Shown one piece after another: positions 4,333 to 28,079 of a DNA stretch of 34,273 bases. Position 1 is the first letter of the stretch, and each line of letters starts with the position of its first letter. Made by a program: the position numbers and the translations under genes. Location: UHGV virus genome UHGV-0115609. One strand, 5' to 3'. The notes beneath the pieces were generated by a model. It made no database searches. It was not told the DNA's origin and worked only from the letters and a program-made list of their open reading frames with translations. This DNA is from a virus.

Positions 4333-4544
4333 TCGTATTAAGTAAACGGGAGAAAGAAACGCTTCATGAAATAAGTAAGTGGCCGGAGTTCCCTGAGTAC
4401 TGGAAGCCTAAAACGCGAGCTAAGTTAGAGCGTTTAGGGTTGGTTGCAAACGTTTCTGAAACGCGGTGTTCGGCCAACTACCAGTTAACTGATAAAGGGA
4501 AAGTATTGCTAAAGCAATTAGTAGAATCAGGAGTGTTAAAATGA
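4329..4544 (+). CDS. Hypothetical small protein (71 aa)
   Basis: ORF overlapping the ligase stop (ATGA at 4329-4332) and the next small gene; coding-like composition. Confidence 0.5.
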   Translation: MIVLSKREKETLHEISKWPEFPEYWKPKTRAKLERLGLVANVSETRCSANYQLTDKGKVLLKQLVESGVLK

Positions 4545-4693
4545 TTCCATACATCTCATTAGCTTTTATGGGTGGCTTCCTTATCGGCTTCGGCATCTGT
4601 CGTGATTTAATTAAGCAGGAACTTAAAACCAAAACACTGTGCATCGGAAAGCGTGTGTATCGGGTAGTTCATGAAACAAAGGTTAGAAAATGA
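4541..4693 (+). CDS. Small predicted membrane protein (50 aa; below the ORF-track cutoff)
   Basis: ATG 4541 preceded by AGGAGTG; hand translation MIPYISLAFMGGFLIGFGICRDLIKQELKTKTLCIGKRVYRVVHETKVRK with a hydrophobic N-terminal segment; ATGA overlaps with both flanking genes. Confidence 0.45.
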   Translation: MIPYISLAFMGGFLIGFGICRDLIKQELKTKTLCIGKRVYRVVHETKVRK

Positions 4694-4980: not shown

Positions 4981-5185
4981 AAATACAATGATAAGTATTT
5001 ACTTACTTATCTTTTATGTATAAGATGACTTTGTTTTCGTTGAGACGCGACTGTTTGAACTTAAATACAAGTGCAAACGAAGAAGTCTATCTGGCAGTAG
5101 CCTAATAAGCCAAACACCAGCGAGGTCAGTTTCCAGCCTCGTTACCGAAATGGGACACACTGAGCGAGTGTGATTGCAGAACGCA

Positions 5186-5492: not shown

Positions 5493-5758
5493 AAGACAGG
5501 ATTGTTGTGTAGGTTTAACCACTGTTGCCATTGGTGCCTGTTTTCACAACAAATGATTCCATACATCACATTGTATAAATTACAAAGTAGGTGCTGTCCT
5601 CAGAAACATCATCTACTTAAAGATTTTGCCTTCTACTATTGAGCGAAGTCGAAAGCGTCTGGCACTAACGAAAAGTGCAAGTAGCGGTGCGTTTCCTGGC
5701 AGAAACTAAACCGTCGCGATTGGCACTGTTGAGTAATAAATACTGGCAGTGCTGAATT

Positions 5759-5833
5759 GATGGTGTAGCTCAGCGGTAGAGCAGTTGGCTGTTAACCAAC
5801 TGGTCGGTGGTTCGAATCCACCCACCATCGCCA
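5759..5833 (+). tRNA. tRNA-Asn (anticodon GTT)
   Basis: Cloverleaf by hand: acceptor GATGGTG/CACCATC, D-arm GCTCAGCGGTAGAGC, anticodon stem GTTGG/CCAAC with loop CTGTTAA, T-arm GGTGG-TTCGAAT-CCACC, discriminator G, encoded CCA. Confidence 0.85.
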
Positions 5834-5838
5834 ATTTA

Positions 5839-5925
5839 GGGGAGTTAGTCCGTAGGGGCAGCGGGGTAGACTGTAAATCTACTGTCATTGCGACTCGGGT
5901 GGTTCGACTCCATCACTCCCCACCA
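5839..5925 (+). tRNA. tRNA-Tyr (anticodon GTA), type II with long variable arm
   Basis: Acceptor GGGGAGT/ACTCCCC, anticodon stem GTAGA/TCTAC with loop CTGTAAA, long variable arm, T-loop TTCGACT, encoded CCA. The anticodon arm closely resembles E. coli tRNA-Tyr. Confidence 0.75.
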
Positions 5926-5929
5926 AATT

Positions 5930-6005
5930 GCCGGTTTAGCTCAGTTGGTAGAGCGCCTGCCTTGTAAGCAGGATGTCAGCGGTTCGATCCCGTTAACCGG
6001 CACCA
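5930..6005 (+). tRNA. tRNA-Thr (anticodon TGT)
   Basis: Acceptor GCCGGTT/AACCGGC, D-arm AGCTCAGTTGGTAGAGC, anticodon stem CCTGC/GCAGG with loop CTTGTAA, T-loop TTCGATC, encoded CCA. Confidence 0.8.
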
Positions 6006-6006
6006 A

Positions 6007-6095
6007 CACAACAGGTAAGAGCATTGGGCGAATCGGCGATACTGACCCACAAGCCCGTAAATCGATAGAGTCAGACCAGTGCTCTTACCGTTGTG
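6007..6095 (+). ncRNA. Long hairpin H2 starting 1 nt after the tRNA-Thr CCA
   Basis: Left arm CACAACAGGTAAGAGCATTGG (6007-6027) pairs with right arm CCAGTGCTCTTACCGTTGTG (6076-6095), with one bulge and one mismatch. Confidence 0.45.
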
Positions 6096-6145
6096 AGGAA
6101 GTGCAGCTCTTTGAAGCAACCAGAAGATAAGCATCTGGCTTCACA

Positions 6146-6228
6146 ACACAACGATAAGATCATTACGGTTAATCGTCGTTCATGTGCACAATGACTGGTC
6201 GAAAGGTAGTGATCTTACCGTTGTGGTG
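6146..6228 (+). ncRNA. Long hairpin H3, paralogous to H2
   Basis: Left arm CACAACGATAAGATCATTAC pairs with right arm GGTAGTGATCTTACCGTTGTGGTG; shares the CACAAC...GTAAGA...CGTTGTG framework with H2. Confidence 0.4.
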
Positions 6229-6369
6229 GATTCGCAGACTGATGCGATAGCTTTCTTGGATGTTAGGGAAATGCGGCCGCAAATCTTCCCTTTCGCGAGC
6301 GGTGATCGTCCGTAGTCCTAATTGGCTGCACCGTATGCCGGAGATTCAGTACCGGCCACCACAACGGCC

Positions 6370-6456
6370 GGAGAGTAGGGAGCATGGTGCTCAAGCGGTC
6401 TTGAAAACCGTCCCATTGCGCAAGCGATGATGGTTCGATTCCATTACTCTCCGCCA
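6370..6456 (+). tRNA. tRNA-Ser (anticodon TGA), type II with long variable arm
   Basis: Acceptor GGAGAGT/ACTCTCC, anticodon stem GCGGT/ACCGT with loop CTTGAAA, long variable arm, T-loop TTCGATT, discriminator G, encoded CCA. Confidence 0.75.
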
Positions 6457-6457
6457 G

Positions 6458-6537
6458 ACACAGCGTTGAGCGGTTTGGCCTTTTAATCACCCAGATTAAG
6501 ACTCCGCTAACATAAACCAGACCGCTCAACGCTGTGA
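6458..6537 (+). ncRNA. Long hairpin H4 starting 1 nt after the tRNA-Ser CCA
   Basis: Left arm ACACAGCGTTGAGCGGTTTGG (6458-6478) pairs with right arm CCAGACCGCTCAACGCTGTGA (6517-6537) with one mismatch; the arm sequence resembles H1. Confidence 0.45.
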
Positions 6538-6611
6538 TAGACAATTACGGCAGACGTTCTTAACCATAGCTTGCTAACATCCTAGCAACACTTTTTTTCA
6601 GCGCAAAATTC

Positions 6612-6636
6612 AAAGGGGCTTCGGCCCCTTTTTTGC
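6612..6636 (+). terminator. Rho-independent terminator closing the tRNA region
   Basis: AAAGGGGC-TTCG-GCCCCTTTTTTG: GC-rich stem, tetraloop and T-tract. Confidence 0.8.
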
Positions 6637-6677
6637 AACTGAAAGAGTCAAGTCTACGAACTTTGTAGGAAGAAATA

Positions 6678-7028
6678 ATGACCAGCAAAGATAACACACC
6701 ACTAAAAGTCACCCCTGAACACATTGAACAACTCATTCAAAGTGAACATTATTTCACTGCATATGATGCCAGCCACGGGGATAACTTCATCTCCGTTTAC
6801 AATTCAAAAACAGATATCGACAAATGTCATGAGTCGTTAAAACTCTTAACGTTCTGCGTTATGGTTCTCAAAAATGGATATACCGTAACGGGAAAATCTG
6901 CGTGCGTAAGACCAGAAATCTTCAACTTTGATGTTGGTCGCGAGTACGCTCGAAAAGATGCTATCGATCAAATCTGGCCCCTGGAAGGCTATCTCCTGAA
7001 GCAAAAGTGGCATGAGGCAAAGCAATGA
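6678..7028 (+). CDS. Hypothetical protein (116 aa)
   Basis: ORF with RBS-like GGAAG upstream of the ATG; its stop overlaps the start of the glutaredoxin gene. Confidence 0.55.
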   Translation: MTSKDNTPLKVTPEHIEQLIQSEHYFTAYDASHGDNFISVYNSKTDIDKCHESLKLLTFCVMVLKNGYTVTGKSACVRPEIFNFDVGREYARKDAIDQIWPLEGYLLKQKWHEAKQ

Positions 7029-7270
7029 CGATCACTATCTACGGACGAGATAACTGCTCATACTGCAAACGTGCGGTCGAGCTGGCGAAGCAACTAAAGG
7101 GACATGGCTACGGTGATTATGAGTACATCGACATCACCACTGCCGGTATCGACAAGGAAAAACTAAGTGAAATTGTTGGTAAACCGGTAGAGACTATCCC
7201 CCAAGTGCTGATCGATGGCCAACCGATTGGCGGATACACAGAACTGGCTGCATACGTCAGCACCCTCTGA
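7025..7270 (+). CDS. Glutaredoxin-like protein (NrdH/Grx-type thiol-disulfide oxidoreductase)
   Basis: 81 aa with IYGRDNCSYCKRA (CxxC active site after a beta-strand) and C-terminal PQVLIDGQPIGGYTEL, the glutaredoxin fold signature. Confidence 0.75.
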   Translation: MTITIYGRDNCSYCKRAVELAKQLKGHGYGDYEYIDITTAGIDKEKLSEIVGKPVETIPQVLIDGQPIGGYTELAAYVSTL

Positions 7271-7274
7271 TTTT

Positions 7275-7300
7275 AACGGCTCACAGGAGCCGTTTTTATT
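7275..7300 (+). terminator. Rho-independent terminator after the glutaredoxin gene
   Basis: AACGGCTC-ACAG-GAGCCGTT followed by TTTTATT. Confidence 0.75.
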
Positions 7301-7349
7301 CCCACCAAACTCACTCCCGTTTCCCTTAAAATTCAAAAAACAACGTCAA

Positions 7350-7382
7350 AATGATTCCATACCTACTATGTATGGAATCATT
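7350..7382. promoter_or_regulatory. Perfect 13-7-13 inverted repeat AATGATTCCATAC-CTACTAT-GTATGGAATCATT; candidate recombinase core site or operator
   Basis: Seen directly in the sequence, about 100 bp upstream of the tyrosine recombinase gene. The geometry matches the arm-spacer-arm layout of tyrosine-recombinase core sites. Confidence 0.45.
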
Positions 7383-7480
7383 AGTAAAAATGAGTTACTT
7401 TTACTCTTGATCCTATAAGAATCTATGCCTAATATACTGTTTACTTATACAGTACATCGGCGTAACTCGGTGATTGTCAT

Positions 7481-8584
7481 ATGAAAAATAGCTTTGACAG
7501 AGCACGCGCTGCGGAGAACACCTCAAAAGAGGCGATAGAGTATCTCGAAAGAGCATCTCAAATGCAGGCCGTTACGATCTCCCAGGTCAGCAATGACATG
7601 AGATTCTCGGACGCATTCATGTTATTCACTCGCTTATCTCTGCTGATAACCAGACGTCGGCCAGAGATCGCTGTTCATTGTATTTTGATACATGTTTTGC
7701 CGCACATTGCCGATGTAAAAGTAAGTGACATTAATAGGTTCATGGTGAACCAACTGGTCAACCCACTAATACTGGATGGCAAAATTGTTATGGGTCGCCG
7801 CGTTTTCTCTCTGATGAAGCAGTTCCTTAGCTGGTGCGCCTTCCAGGGGATGATAGACGTGTCACCGTTAAACGATATGTCACTTAACAAAGTTGCCGGT
7901 GGCGCAAAGCCCACACCTCGCGAGCGGAAGCTGACCGACGCAGAGGTATGGGTGTTCTGGAATATATGGGACTACTTCAATGTGTGTGCTGGTACAAAAT
8001 GGGCGGCCAGGCTATGTCTTGTATCCGCAAGACGACCTGACGAAGTACTGCGTGCTAAAAAAAGTGAGTTCAATCTTAAGCGTGGGGTTTGGAATCAAGG
8101 CAAGAGGAACAAATCTGCCCGTGAGCATTCTCTGCCTTTAAGCTCATTAATGCGCACTTGTATTGAAGAGTTGTTCGAATATGGTAAAGACAGCCAGTGG
8201 CTCGTGCCTTCGAATAAAAAAATCGGGAAAGACCTTCCTATGTCTAAAGTGGCAATAGCCCAGGCATTACGTCGTATTCTGGAACGACCAGAACTGATGG
8301 AGCTTGAGCCATTTACACCCCGAGATTTGCGCCGTACTGCGCGTAGTTACTTCCCAGCATTAGGCATAAGCCAGGAGGTATCACGTAAAATCATGAACCA
8401 CAGTCTTGAGGGGATAGATCGGGTCTACGACCGGCACGATTATATGGACGAGATGCGAGACGCCTTAGAAAGTTTCTCGACGTACATCGCATCAATCGTA
8501 GAGCAACCGGATTTAGACGAAATTGACCACAAATTTAAGGGAGATCGTCTATCAACAGAGCTTATTCGTGTAAATTTTTCATAG
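7481..8584 (+). CDS. Tyrosine site-specific recombinase (phage integrase family)
   Basis: C-terminal catalytic region with the conserved pattern: TPRDLRRTARSY (box I Arg), IMNHSLEGIDRVYDRHDY (His-x-x-Arg and Tyr nucleophile); size 367 aa. Confidence 0.8.
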   Translation: MKNSFDRARAAENTSKEAIEYLERASQMQAVTISQVSNDMRFSDAFMLFTRLSLLITRRRPEIAVHCILIHVLPHIADVKVSDINRFMVNQLVNPLILDGKIVMGRRVFSLMKQFLSWCAFQGMIDVSPLNDMSLNKVAGGAKPTPRERKLTDAEVWVFWNIWDYFNVCAGTKWAARLCLVSARRPDEVLRAKKSEFNLKRGVWNQGKRNKSAREHSLPLSSLMRTCIEELFEYGKDSQWLVPSNKKIGKDLPMSKVAIAQALRRILERPELMELEPFTPRDLRRTARSYFPALGISQEVSRKIMNHSLEGIDRVYDRHDYMDEMRDALESFSTYIASIVEQPDLDEIDHKFKGDRLSTELIRVNFS

Positions 8585-8965
8585 AGACTTTATGGCCTCA
8601 ACAACCTTTTGTGATGCGCCTTTCTCTTTACCGAATCGCTCGTTATATGCAGCAAGAACCTGTTTTTCGTCCTCGTTAAGAGGAGCAGTGCCTTCTTTGT
8701 ATAAAAATGCTGCGAGTTCGGGTTGGCGTTCTTCCAGCACCATCATCATAAGACGACTTGGCTCAATACCCAGTGCCAGCGCCAGCGGACGAACCTTATC
8801 GATAGGCAAAGGAATTTTGCCGCTTTTAATTAAAGAAAGGTTGTTGGCGTTTTTATACCCAATTGTTTTGGCTATCTGGGCCTGGCTCATAGGTGAGGAT
8901 TCAATCAACCCTGCGATAAAAGCAGCGTAGCGACTTTCTATAAATTCAATCTTGTTATCAGACAT
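8579..8965 (-). CDS. HTH (XRE/Cro-CI-type) transcriptional regulator
   Basis: Helix-turn-helix signature MSQAQIAKTIGYKNANNLSLIKSGK; convergent with the recombinase gene and divergent from the ORF at 9217 across an AT-rich intergenic region. Confidence 0.7.
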   Translation of the reverse strand: MSDNKIEFIESRYAAFIAGLIESSPMSQAQIAKTIGYKNANNLSLIKSGKIPLPIDKVRPLALALGIEPSRLMMMVLEERQPELAAFLYKEGTAPLNEDEKQVLAAYNERFGKEKGASQKVVEAIKSL

Positions 8966-13173: not shown

Positions 13174-16100
13174 CTTCTCACTTGGGGAGTCGGCTCTAAA
13201 AGCAGAAAACGCGGTGAAGATTGCCAGAGAAGCTGGCTACACCGCTGTAATTTCAGCAGATAGCATGAATATTGCGAGCGTTATTCCACTACAACGTGCC
13301 GCTGGTGACGACATGGCGGTTATTTGTGGTGTGAAACTAAACATCGTTGATGATCCCACATACGAGCACCGGGCTAAACTTGCTAAAGAGTCTAAGGGAT
13401 GTATGGAATCATTGGAGCGAGGACGTAACTACTCGTTTACCGCTCTAATTAAAAATGAGAAAGGATATCGCGACATCTGCGAACTAATGACGGTGGCCAA
13501 CACACGAGAACAGTTCTACTTTGTACCGCGTCTCTCGCTCGAACAGTTGGTTTCTACATATGCCAAAGGCAACATCATCCTGCTCACTTCCGACATCGGT
13601 AGCGTGTTCCAACGCAACGATTTTGCAAAAATCATAAGCTCACTGATTACAGCGGGCGGGAAAGACAACTTCTATAGCGTGGTTTATCCGCACCCTACCC
13701 CATTCTACGACCAGATTAACGTCCGAGCGATGAAAGTAGCCAGCGCATTGAAAATAGAGCCAGTGGCGTTCTATCCCGCTTATTACGAATCGATCGACGA
13801 TGCAGACATTAAAGACATTGCGCACATGGTTACGAACAACATAAAAATCGACCAGCCGCATCGTCTGCGTATCCCCCACCAGCGAGATAACGCCATCAAT
13901 GGTCGTCGCCATCTCCTTGAGGCGCTTAAAGCCTTCTCCGTTCGCATGGATGTGCCGGTAACAGCTGCAATGGCCTCAACAACGCAGGACTCCATTATCG
14001 ATGCCTGCACATGGCGCTGGCATGAATTGCCACCAGCACTGCCCAAGATGGCAGACGACGAACCTGCAACGCTGATGAAACTGGCTGTTGCAGGGCTGCG
14101 TAAACGTCTTACCACAAAAGAGTTTGGATACACACCACCTGCTTCTGAGAACAGGGTTTATGTTGAGCGGCTAAAGTACGAAATGGACACGCTGACTCGC
14201 CTGGGATTCTGTGGTTACTTCCTGATGGTACGCGATCTGATGAATCACAGCCGTGAAACTGGCATTCCTGTCGGGCCTGGTCGTGGTTCCTCTGCCGGTT
14301 CTCTGGTGGCGTGGTGCATAGGCATAACCAACGTCGACCCAATCCGTCACGGTCTTCTGTTTGAGCGTTTCATCAACCCTGAGCGTCTCGACTTGCCGGA
14401 TGCGGACTTGGACTTCAGCCAGGCACGTCGCCATGAGGTGATCGAGTATCTGAATGAACGCTACGGCGAAGATTACGTTGCAGGCATTCCGAACTTCACC
14501 TATCTGGGCGCGGCATCTGCACTACGTGACACCGCTCGTATTTATGGTGTGGAGTCCGCAGATATGGCGGTATCAAAAGAACTGAAGAACGTCGAGGATG
14601 ATAGCCTTCCATTGGAAGAGCTGCGCGAACAACTGGCAAGTCTCGACAAATACGCAACAAAATATCCTGATGCATTCAATGCAGCCTGCAAGTTACAAAG
14701 CCTTATGCGTGGCTTTGGTAGACATGCGGCAGGGATGATCGTAGCAGGTGTTCCTCTGACAGAACGTACACCGGTTGAGCGCCGTGGTGACGCGCGTTGT
14801 ATCGCATTTGACAAGCGTTACTGCGAGGCTATGGGCCTAATTAAGCTGGACGTGCTTGGCCTGGCAACGCTCGATCTTCTGGATAGCGCGAAACGCTACA
14901 TCAAAGAGAGTACCGGGGAAGACATCAATCTCGACGCTATCCCACTGGACGATCGCAAGGTTCTGGATGGGTTCGCTGCAGGGTACACGCAGGGCGTATT
15001 CCAGCTGGAGTCCGGCCCCATGCGTAAGTTGCTTAAAGATCTGGGCGGTGGCATCGAGCCAATGAGCTTCAAGACCGTTGTCGCCACGACCGCACTCTTC
15101 CGACCAGGCCCGATCCAATCCGGCATGTTGGACGACTATGTCTCCGTGGCCAAAGGCTTCATGGCTCCACATTCAATTCATCCGCGTCTTGAGGAAGTCA
15201 CCCGGGAGACTAATGGTGTTTTGCTCTATCAGGAACAAATCATGCAAAGTTCCCGAGTACTTGCCGGGTTCTCTATGGCCGAAGCAGACGCTCTGCGTTC
15301 CGCTATCGGTAAAAAGAACATGGATAAGATGAAAGCGATCGGCAGCGATTTTGTAGAACGAGCACAAGCAGGCTGGGTGACACTGTCACTCAAAAATGGA
15401 GGTACTGTAGAGGTTCACAAACACGCAAAACTGGATTGCTCAGACGGTAAGCGTAGAAGCTACAGCGAGGCTATTAGTGACGGCATAGACTACGTGGAGA
15501 TCGTCTCTGAACAAGAAGGTCTCAGTAAGGAAAAAGCCCAAGAAATATGGGACGCCTTTGAGAAGTTCGGTGGATATGCCTTCAACAAATCACACAGTGT
15601 TGCTTATTCTTTAATCAGTTATCAGTCTATGTGGCTAAAGACGCACTACCCTGCTGAGTTCTTCGCAGCTGCGCTCACCATTCTGGGCGAGGATAAGCAT
15701 CAGGGGCTGGTGAAGGATGCGCTGACCTATGGCATTCGCGTATTGCCACCAGACGTTAATGTGTCATCTAACCGAATTGAGATCCGCACACTCGAAGACG
15801 GCAGTCAGGCACTGTATGCGCCATTCTCTGCTGTGAAAGGCTGTTCTGAAAATGGTTGTCAGGCAATTATGCGTGCGCGTGAGAAAGTTGGTGGCAAATT
15901 CGAGTCAGTGGCACAATTCGATGAAGCGGTCGAGAAGCGTGCATGTAACAGTCGTGTACGCGAGTCGCTTCATAAAGTAGGGGCTTTTGCGTCAATTGAG
16001 CCAGGCAGTCTGCCAGCAACTGATCCTGAACGACTGCGCGACCAGGCTGAGCTGATGGGCAATCTCATCATTGACGCTGTTAAAGCATCACGTCCGTTCG

Positions 16101-26543: not shown

Positions 26544-27025
26544 ACCACTGCGGTGAGTAGCCAGCTCACCGCATTCGTATCAGCTCATTATCCACTGTGG
26601 TCTGCAGTCCTCTCTTCCTACATATCTGCTAACCACTGTAGCGAGTAGACAGCCTTTCATTCGCATCAAACAACCACTATGGTGAGTATTGGAGTGAGAT
26701 GTCCAGCGGGTATCCACTATGGTGAGTAAGCCTTTGCTGTTTTCAGTGGATATCCACTCGCCACAGTGGATACGCTCAAAGATGAGGGCGACAACAACCA
26801 CTATAGACAGTAAATTTTCCAAGATACCCAGTGACCACTAACCTCGCAGCCCTTGTTTCATCAGTGTTAGTGATCACTAACATTTAATTCAGTATTTGCA
26901 TTCTACTGCCTACAGTGGTTATCAACAGATAACGATACTCACTATAGTGGATAGCGAATTACAGATATAAGTAAGGCTCACTACAGTGGATAGTGAGCCT
27001 TACTACTAACTACAGTGGTTGGGCT
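26544..27025. repeat. Iteron array downstream of repA (incA-like copy-control locus): at least 11 copies of a CCACT(A/G)T(A/G)G / C(T/C)A(T/C)AGTGG(A/T)T core in both orientations
   Basis: Visible repeats: AACCACTGCGGTGAGTAG, ATCCACTGTGG, AACCACTGTAGCGAGTAG, AACCACTATGGTGAGTA (twice), CAGTGGATA, CACAGTGGATAC, AACCACTATAGACAG, CTACAGTGGTTATC, CACTATAGTGGATAG, CACTACAGTGGATAG, CTACAGTGGTTGGG. Also contains the 16-bp perfect palindrome GTTAGTGATCACTAAC (26866-26881). Confidence 0.8.
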
Positions 27026-28079
27026 ATTTGCGAGTCTTTGCCTTGCGCAACTCTTCGAGAAGCGCCAGTTCTTCTTTACTCAACATGACCATTTTGCCTT
27101 CTTTTTCGTCAGGCACAACGTCGATAATGTCATCTTGATTCTCATCTGGGAGGCTATATTCCGTCTCATCATTATCGATTTTTGTTGATATTTGTGCCTG
27201 GCGTAACTTTGGCCGCCTATAGTGGATGATGAAGTAGACCGAGTTTCCGCGCTTAACTTCCGTGTAATCGAGATATCCTATCTCTCGCAGCTGTTCCATA
27301 GCCTTTCTTACCGTCGCATTCTGAGTAATAGTGCGACTTGTCAGATTAAGTCTGGCGCGTAAACGAGCTAGTGATATTGGTGCCGGATCAGGCGGCAAAC
27401 TTTCAATAAAAGTATAAAGCGCCTGAGCGGATTCTTTTCTTGAGAGTTCGTTTATAGCCCGGAGTTGCAGAAGAACCTTTTTGTCGAACTGGTAGAGTTC
27501 GAAAATCTTGGGATCTGCTTTCAGTTCGACCGTATCGTGCTTGACACTATATTTTGCCGTTTGCACAAGATGCGTTACGTAAAACTCATCAGAGCCTTTG
27601 CTACGGAACGAGATGGTATTTGTGGCAATACGGCTTAGCGAACTGTCCAGGCGTTTGCGTAACTTCGCTGATGACCTGGCGGTCGGAATGCCACACAGCC
27701 TTACAAACTCAACGAACGGCAACGTGACAGTATCGCCAACGACCTTGTGTTTGGCAAACGCGTGGATTATTCCCACCCACGTTTTAAAGTCGTTATCCAT
27801 ATCAAGCCGAAGGCCAGAGATCCTTATGTCTTCGTACCCTTCGGCTTTTGCCAGAGACAGCTGTTTGAGTTCAGCAGAGGCATCCATAGAGACCATTTGC
27901 CCCTTTCTTCCTCTGGATGTCGATTTCAGCGTCGGAACGAAGAGGCCCAGACGCATCAAAGCAACAGGCTGAACAGTGTTATTAGTGTTAGGAACCAACG
28001 TAACAACTTCGCCTGTCTTTTTATCTGTTTCTGAAAATGCTTCAACGATCGCTATGTTTTTATTGCCGTTTTCGCTCAT
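27024..28079 (-). CDS. repA: Replication initiator RepA (P1/IncFIB RepA-like iteron-binding protein)
   Basis: Segments [59 protein letters not shown] and [27 protein letters not shown] match my recollection of the P1 RepA family; the gene is bracketed by iteron arrays. Confidence 0.85.

Follow-up and report, generated by a model that had tools for sequence, protein, structure and literature searches.

The window, that is the whole stretch of 34,273 nucleotides of UHGV virus genome UHGV-0115609 that was analysed, carries genes for a primase and a ligase, small ORFs, tRNAs, and genes for glutaredoxin, an integrase, an HTH protein, CobT/CobS-like proteins, DnaE and, further on, RepA. Judged by its sequence, it belongs to a phage-plasmid of the SSU5/pHCM2/pMT1 type. 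In the region around the palindrome described below it shows 98% identity to Escherichia phage Cyrano (pLF82); Klebsiella phage-plasmids are also related there, at lower nucleotide identity, and the E. coli plasmid CP057560.1 is 100% identical to the window across the stretches tested. Such phage-plasmids are frequently found in E. coli, Klebsiella, Salmonella, Enterobacter and Yersinia pestis, and resistance genes are present on some of them (PMC9600943). A tyrosine recombinase is listed among the persistent genes of the family, without a named site (PMC7969092).

Between the terminator of the glutaredoxin gene grx (7275-7294) and the start codon of the recombinase gene lies an inverted repeat (7350-7382) that reads AATGATTCCATAC-CTACTAT-GTATGGAATCATT, with perfect 13-nt arms at 7350-7362 and 7370-7382 and a 7-nt spacer at 7363-7369. 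Given the repeat itself and its counterparts at 105 homologous loci, it is treated here as a putative core recombination site. The 13-7-13 geometry described in the first-pass annotation was confirmed from the sequence, and the distance of about 100 bp to the recombinase that it gave corresponds to 98 bp between the end of the palindrome and the ATG, at 7481, of a 367-aa ORF. The perfect arms cannot be extended, either outward or inward. When arms of 16 nt are taken, 15 of the 16 positions are complementary, which makes the 7-bp spacer nearly palindromic, so that direction is carried only by spacer positions 1/7 and 4. The arm centres, read from the sequence, are 20 bp apart, a distance more in keeping with a pair of recombinase monomers than with a small HTH dimer. 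By our own estimate, which is not the output of a tool, about 0.006 perfect 13-nt inverted repeats with spacers of at most 10 nt would be expected in 34 kb. The window contains five exact matches to the 13-mer, at 4540(+), 5552(+), 7350(+), 7370(-) and 13401(-); in a shuffle control allowing up to 2 mismatches, the mean number of matches was 1.05 and none of 100 shuffles reached five.

The adjacent gene, int (7481-8584, plus strand), is assigned to the tyrosine recombinases through a match to Pfam PF00589 (E 3e-10), its catalytic residues and its predicted fold; a further match to PF22022 is below threshold. Across 44 homologs, no variation is seen at R185, R284, R285 and Y316 and almost none at K211 and H307, a conservation from which it can be argued that catalysis by Int is under selection. 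The AlphaFold2 model (pLDDT 86), in which residues 1-60 are all helical, has as its best Foldseek matches lambda Int (E 2e-7), Tn1549 Int and Xer, and matches Cre structures weakly (E ~0.02). A phmmer comparison of Int with all PDB chains returned nothing at E <=0.01 and revealed no sequence relationship to Cre. The nearest sequence relatives outside the Int family are P4-type integrases (27-34% identical); these possess the arm-binding domain PF13356, which is absent from Int. Downstream, the HTH gene (8579-8965, minus strand) is convergent with int and overlaps it by 6 bp.

The association of palindrome and recombinase was followed through loci pooled from annotated phages and plasmids, a set with one genome per species, and IMG/VR, plus two more distant homologs. 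These loci range from 100% to about 45% recombinase identity and cover E. coli, Klebsiella, Yersinia pMT1, Kluyvera, Buttiauxella, Chimaeribacter, Pantoea, Erwinia, Xenorhabdus, Photorhabdus and Providencia. At each of 105 loci, int is preceded at 60-220 bp by one and only one perfect inverted repeat, its arms always 7 nt apart. The arms fall into two classes: TGATTCCATAC, found where Int is at least 56% identical to that of the window, and TGACTCCAGAC, found in Pantoea, Erwinia, Xenorhabdus, Photorhabdus and Providencia, where Int is ~44-50% identical. Between the classes the identical two substitutions occur in both arms, a symmetric change that tracks the Int clade. The arm sequence itself, beyond its capacity to pair, is invariant across lineages whose flanks cannot be aligned. 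The spacer is variable in sequence (consensus CTAnnAn) and constant in length, with 7 nt in all 105 loci. More than 20 loci that have no HTH gene, those of Pantoea and Chimaeribacter among them, still have the palindrome; the site is thus tied to Int and not to the HTH protein, which was rejected as its binder. The constant linkage and spacer length, the clade-wise change of the arms and the independence from the HTH gene strongly support the tyrosine-recombinase core site that had been proposed from the arm-spacer-arm geometry.

Close relatives differ by an exact inversion of the spacer relative to int in at least three separate instances: between Cyrano and PhiR41_1, between Kluyvera and Buttiauxella, and within Pantoea (window 7363-7369 and locus L002 6014-6020; loci L014, L018, L031 and L032 versus other relatives). 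Both orientations could occur without harm only where the recombination partner of the site is a copy of itself. A separate feature of PhiR41_1 is that its perfect arms are lengthened to 17 nt (CAGT...ACTG). The spacer inversions and this arm extension would fit hairpin-templated repair or template switching at the palindrome.

The anatomy of the flanks was derived from an alignment of one representative per distinct left flank. On the left, a conserved box with the consensus TCAGAWTT (TTAAAATT in the window, 7326-7333, plus strand) is located 17-24 nt from the palindrome and is followed by an A-tract (7335-7340). Whichever arm class is present, the box keeps a fixed distance from the palindrome, also at loci where the left flank is otherwise unrelated, and it is itself unchanged between the classes; it forms the true left border of the conserved module. 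The idea that it is a third, degenerate arm at -24 was discarded, the likeness being weak (4.85/11 matches). On the right, a -10-like hexamer, TACTTT (7396-7401, plus strand; family pattern TAnnnT), is found at a fixed 13 nt from the palindrome in both arm classes and is the only promoter-like element ahead of int in Pantoea. With this spacing the right arm covers the -35 region of a promoter directed at int, which suggests that Int regulates its own expression. A second candidate int promoter, an addition found in SSU5-type elements, follows on the plus strand (-35 TTGATC, 7407-7412; -10 TAATAT, 7430-7435; 17-nt spacing). Its -10 is overlapped by a palindrome resembling a LexA box, TACTGTTTACTTATACAGTA (7435-7454), which is unique within the window and conserved in the Klebsiella, Yersinia, Kluyvera and L006 lineages. 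Since int and the HTH gene, a putative repressor gene, are convergent, SOS-induced transcription of int would run antisense into the latter; such antisense transcription could act as an induction switch.

The palindrome also coincides with a sharp boundary of homology. In 794 plasmids, and likewise in phage records, homology to the window starts at 7330-7352, and the DNA to the left (window ~5500-7349) falls into 41 unrelated flank groups among the 105 loci. From this comparison of flanks, the left side is a slot for cargo, a hotspot of gene turnover. In Yersinia pestis pMT1 the slot (L005 1113-6241) contains the F1 capsule operon caf1R-caf1M-caf1A-caf1, in PhiR41_1 a chaperone-usher-like operon with an IS remnant, and in other relatives YafO-like or RelE toxin modules or type I restriction genes. 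In Cyrano, a gene of the slot is reported to stand 723-fold above background in the lysogen (PMC9928086). Two Kluyvera-type elements that are 97-98% identical differ by the clean swap of a 1-kb two-gene module; on the right the module ends at base 0 of the palindrome, and its left junction bears no site. Capture of cargo by Int was considered and rejected, as neither a second palindrome nor a hybrid site was ever seen in the 105 loci and the left junction of the swap is siteless. Given this siteless junction, all that the sharp boundary reveals is that the conserved elements begin with the palindrome.

Isolated copies of the arm, designated half-sites A to D, are distributed on both sides of the palindrome, at 0.7-6 kb. 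Half-site A (AATGATTCCATACATC, 4540-4555, plus strand) coincides with the ATGA at which the stop and start codons of two ORFs (71 aa and 50 aa) overlap, and half-site B (5552-5567, plus strand) is intergenic, ~200 bp upstream of tRNA-Asn. Half-site D (13398-13413, minus strand, with the exact 13-mer at 13401) lies inside the dnaE-like ORF, over codons C-M-E-S-L. The position of half-site C (8084-8099, minus strand) is inside int, over codons D-V-W-N-Q; it is degenerate in the window (GATTCCAAAC) and lost in E. coli, but intact with a following ATC in the Klebsiella, Yersinia, Kluyvera, L006 and L007 lineages. The contexts given in the first-pass annotation for the copies at 4540 and 5552 were right, and a fourth locus, that in the dnaE-like ORF, had been missed. 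It came from the wider search for the arm sequence that had been recommended, which yielded this further copy at 13398-13413(-). Beyond the neighbourhood of int no copy of arm plus ATC was present in the complete Cyrano genome (outside a region of 9.2 kb) or in ~99% of pMT1 (outside 13 kb). The same annotation had described the copies as the left arm with an extension; isolated copies of the arm do exist, and A, B and D in the window share AATGATTCCATACATC, the arm plus ATC, but the extension does not belong to the left arm of the palindrome, which is followed by CTA, not ATC. The ATC resembles only the sequence next to the right arm on the other strand (ATA).

Conservation of the half-sites was scored in alignments built from their flanks, which hence were not selected for the motif. 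Half-site D (TGTATGGAATCATT) is invariant in 65/65 aligned loci, representing 19 haplotypes, and neighbouring third codon positions vary. Half-site A is intact in 52 of the 54 aligned loci despite variable flanks, and half-site B is retained in lineages whose flanks cannot be aligned and share only a short upstream CACAAC stretch. The ATC extension is nearly invariant, though it was not used for finding the half-sites. In these alignments the conservation of the isolated half-sites against diverged flanks is real and indicates that they are under selection. Their orientation is equally regular: in ~100 loci, copies to the left are all on the plus strand and copies to the right all on the minus strand, so that they point at the palindrome. 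Isolated copies are confined to the clade with TGATTCCATAC arms and phage-plasmid synteny; none was present within 8-10 kb in the Pantoea-class, Providencia and Chimaeribacter loci.

Several roles for these copies were examined and set aside. A promoter scan detected no promoters at the half-sites, and inspection of A, B and D found no consistently spaced -10. No local secondary structure and no Rfam match accompany them, which speaks against hairpins or RNA elements. As crossover sites they would have 'spacers' sharing only ATC, and neither inversions nor deletions occur there; ~100 loci preserve their collinear order, and 783 of 790 plasmids have an uninterrupted D region. The two functions that had been suggested for them earlier did not gain ground: for classical accessory sites the copies, 1.8-6 kb from the palindrome on either side, are too far away, and as a reused operator motif they would be expected to overlap recognisable promoters, which they do not. 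In the most economical reading, half-sites A, B and D (and C in relatives) are most likely additional, non-recombining binding sites for single Int monomers. In two loci, L068 and L064, in-frame insertions of 9 nt and 6 nt are seen immediately beside half-site D in dnaE (~+5926 to +5929 from the int start); in L068, part of the half-site motif is duplicated by them (TCATACATC).

The distribution of the site bears on the question of whether it serves resolution or integration, both of which had been put forward. Among 5,426 complete E. coli genomes, in a search limited to hits that have an exact 28-base word in common with the query, the palindrome was found in 206, once per genome, at 206 plasmid places and with 0 chromosomal copies. 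A site with a flipped spacer is the reverse complement of the original, so that querying these genomes with the flipped spacer is uninformative. The pair of gene and site is also present on 250-600-kb Pantoea plasmids without phage genes nearby, and toxin-antitoxin stability modules are often found directly beside the palindrome. Resolution of multimers is more likely than integration on these data: it is favoured by the absence of chromosomal copies together with exactly one copy per plasmid in the 206 genomes, and also by the non-phage Pantoea plasmids, the spacer flips and the toxin-antitoxin neighbours. The first of the two proposed functions is thereby upheld and the second disfavoured. 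In pMT1, a serine 'recombinase family protein' is encoded next to a RelE/Phd pair and parAB (L116 37386-38006; record 88370-88990). This serine recombinase, a second candidate for multimer resolution in pMT1, could do the resolving, which counts against resolution by Int.

From sequence comparison we infer binding by Int, catalysis at the site, a role in resolution and autoregulation. The reading that brings these together, to which we give fairly good odds, is that the palindrome is the cognate core site at which the adjacent Int resolves phage-plasmid multimers, with Int autoregulated and the half-sites binding Int. Two Int monomers would bind the inverted arms over 11-13 bp, with strand exchange across the 7-bp spacer. 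With a single site per replicon, it would recombine with its identical counterpart, either on a sister copy or in the same multimer, and multimers of the ~108-kb phage-plasmid would be turned into monomers, as Cre/loxP does for P1. Through occupation of the -35 region of the conserved promoter by the right arm, Int would probably autoregulate, and in SSU5-type elements the LexA-controlled second promoter would raise Int during the SOS response. The half-sites with ATC would bind Int singly, without recombination, and act in cis near the core. Several facts count against this model. P4-type integrases, the nearest outgroup of Int, integrate, and Int has no sequence relationship to Cre; a housekeeping resolvase would not usually be under LexA control; symmetric covariation of the arms is equally expected for a pure operator or a hairpin; and conserved, oriented half-sites are left unexplained by simple resolution.

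Other explanations share part of this evidence. The palindrome and half-sites could be pure operators through which a repressor, either a DNA-binding Int or the HTH protein, controls int and early genes without recombination. The scattered single and paired operators of the P1 C1 repressor offer a model for such an arrangement, and the overlap of the right arm with the -35 region of the TAnnnT promoter, as well as the single asymmetric copies dispersed through the early and replication region, would suit it. Expression of the HTH gene in the Cyrano lysogen (PMC9928086) is also in its favour. Yet the palindrome persists where the HTH gene is missing, Photorhabdus and Xenorhabdus loci that do have this gene lack isolated copies, half-site centres 20 bp apart are a poor fit for a small HTH dimer, A, C and D are embedded in operons or coding sequence with no consistent promoter overlap on inspection of the sequence, and the conserved catalytic residues of Int point to selection for catalysis; control by operators alone is held to be unlikely. 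Another explanation is a purely structural palindrome, acting as a terminator, cruciform or RNA stem-loop, with the half-sites as coincidences of coding or RNA pairing. The 13-bp stem does fold well as single-stranded DNA (-11.2 kcal/mol, z -6.2), a T-rich tract follows the palindrome on the minus strand, and transcripts of A and B would be complementary to the mRNAs of int (at C) and dnaE (at D). This complementarity, however, ends exactly at the arm boundary; the isolated copies are structureless and without an Rfam match, grx has its own terminator, and mere pairing does not account for arms that stay invariant among unalignable flanks. A hairpin alone is extremely improbable. An integrase proper, for which the palindrome would be the attP core used for insertion into the chromosome or another replicon, would agree with the kinship of Int to P4-type integrases, with lambda Int as best structural match, with SOS control, which is typical of prophage functions, and with some records being large plasmids, possibly fusions (183-247 kb). 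It is nonetheless very unlikely, given that none of the 206 E. coli occurrences is chromosomal and no genome has a second copy, that each of the 105 loci has one palindrome, that the pair resides on non-phage Pantoea plasmids, that Int lacks an arm-binding domain, that no Xis-like gene was noticed and that the site is a perfect palindrome rather than an attP with flanking arm-type sites.

A further possibility concerns the half-sites, which as binding sites for Int monomers might form a polar barrier or domain organiser that halts or unloads a DNA-tracking machine such as replication forks, MukBEF or RNA polymerase, with the core lying in a terminus-like trap. Their convergent strand pattern in ~100 loci, their absence elsewhere in the Cyrano and pMT1 genomes, their conservation at synonymous positions within coding sequence and the fact that they are not crossover points are all compatible with it. 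A precedent exists in the XerCD/dif system, in which dif-like XDS sites near dif have a recombination-independent role with XerD in Bacillus (Karaboja et al. 2021, in the terms in which PMC11840125 cites it). The flanking of a core by single asymmetric sites in opposed orientation (+ + [core] - -) is common to XerD/XDS, Tus/Ter and the window; XDS and Ter, however, operate at chromosomal scale with known machinery, and the element in the window has 3-4 sites within 13 kb of plasmid. Oppositely oriented groups of Ter sites flank dif. With only 3-4 site families, the orientation pattern alone would arise by chance about 1 time in 8; the region is not opposite repA, and the GC skew, a monotonic curve dominated by gene orientation, gives no terminus signal; and enterobacteria use MukBEF/MatP, not Smc/XerD. 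A barrier of this kind is decidedly unlikely, and it would be something of a long shot to credit Int with a second, non-recombination job in which monomers on convergent half-sites form a polar trap or looped domain. Were it true, the trap or loop would focus forks, condensin or transcription on the resolution site, switched by SOS via the LexA-controlled int promoter, and would be a plasmid-scale counterpart of Tus/Ter or of XerD/XDS around dif.

Comparison with known systems places the preferred reading, a core site resolved by its own Int, within a familiar framework. The window pair fits the general pattern of a simple tyrosine recombinase with a palindromic core, by its catalytic residues, arms of 11-14 bp with a spacer of 6-8 bp, and co-evolution of protein and site. 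Cre/loxP of P1, Dre/rox, Vika/vox, Nigri/nox and Panto/pox likewise associate a single palindromic target with its own recombinase gene, and they share with the window site 13-bp arms, a short asymmetric spacer and an expected role in multimer resolution; the distance of 20 bp between arm centres is that of loxP or FRT. The published Cre-type sites were themselves found by the logic of a palindrome near the gene (PMC4957104). The pair nevertheless does not fit the Cre family proper: the spacer is 7 bp rather than 8 bp, so that there is no 13-8-13 site, Int has no Cre homology and its fold is nearer to lambda Int than to Cre. To our knowledge, loxP has neither dispersed half-sites nor LexA control. 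Identity of the Pantoea Int homologs with the published Panto recombinase was ruled out, as Panto is 41% identical to Cre and has a 13-8-13 site (PMC4957104).

The closest arrangement of half-sites is found in TnpI/IRS of Tn4430 (and in the TnpI of Tn5401), where the motif occurs as an inverted core pair and as single uncut copies recognised by regulatory subunits; the core has perfectly symmetric arms and a short asymmetric spacer, and its reversal relative to the accessory motifs is tolerated (PMC2847244). This tolerance parallels the natural spacer flips at the window site. The accessory motifs of TnpI are direct repeats on one side within a 116-bp site, whereas the window copies are two-sided and convergent, at 0.7-6 kb, with no one-sided accessory copies within ~100 bp; moreover, the window site has no transposon context, unlike TnpI/IRS. 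The accessory motifs of TnpI and the sites bound by XerD only are thus partial precedents, neither of which, in this comparison, appears to match both the kilobase spacing and the two-sided convergent layout. In the Rci/sfx shufflon of R64, sites with a 7-bp spacer and one conserved arm exist in both orientations. The sfx sites share their spacer and invert DNA, whereas the window half-sites share only ATC and, unlike those of the shufflon, show no inversion in ~100 loci or in 783/790 plasmids. The lambda and P4-type integrases provide both the closest fold and the closest sequence outgroup of Int, and a 7-bp overlap is typical of lambda Int. Unlike lambda- or P4-type attP systems, the window element has no N-terminal arm-binding domain in its recombinase and no distinct arm-type sites, and neither a chromosomal attB nor an integrated state was found in the 5,426 E. 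coli genomes; its half-sites are core-type, not arm-type.

A search of the literature other than subscription journals returned no description of the motif, nor of a site in pMT1, pHCM2 or SSU5. The pair therefore appears to be a previously undescribed recombinase/site pair of a familiar kind, and probably constitutes a resolution system with autoregulation and SOS input. Until now, the persistent tyrosine recombinase of SSU5-type elements was without an assigned target in the searchable literature. A defined 33-bp site would make its role in plasmid stability directly testable, and would add to the engineering toolbox a 13-7-13 recombinase/site pair with two natural specificity classes. It would also put a recombination site at the edge of a slot that holds the F1 capsule operon in pMT1, or fimbrial, toxin-antitoxin and restriction genes. 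Conserved, oriented half-sites in essential genes could in turn reveal a non-catalytic role of a tyrosine recombinase.

Three other features of the window were recorded. The tRNA cluster at 5759-6456 comprises Asn, Tyr, Thr and Ser, with Ser apart from the others; its equivalent in Cyrano (L001 19609-19856) comprises Asn, Thr and Ser, packed together, in elements that are otherwise near-identical. Positions 5054-5156 give a weak Rfam match (17 bits, E 0.04) to the tRNA-like 3' part of the tmRNA model, within the 780 bp without ORFs that separate the small ORFs from the tRNA cluster. Finally, just beyond the end of the repA-like ORF (27024-28079, minus strand) there is a 21-nt inverted repeat at 26963-27011, 86% complementary and with a spacer of 7 nt, which could be a terminator or related to the origin.
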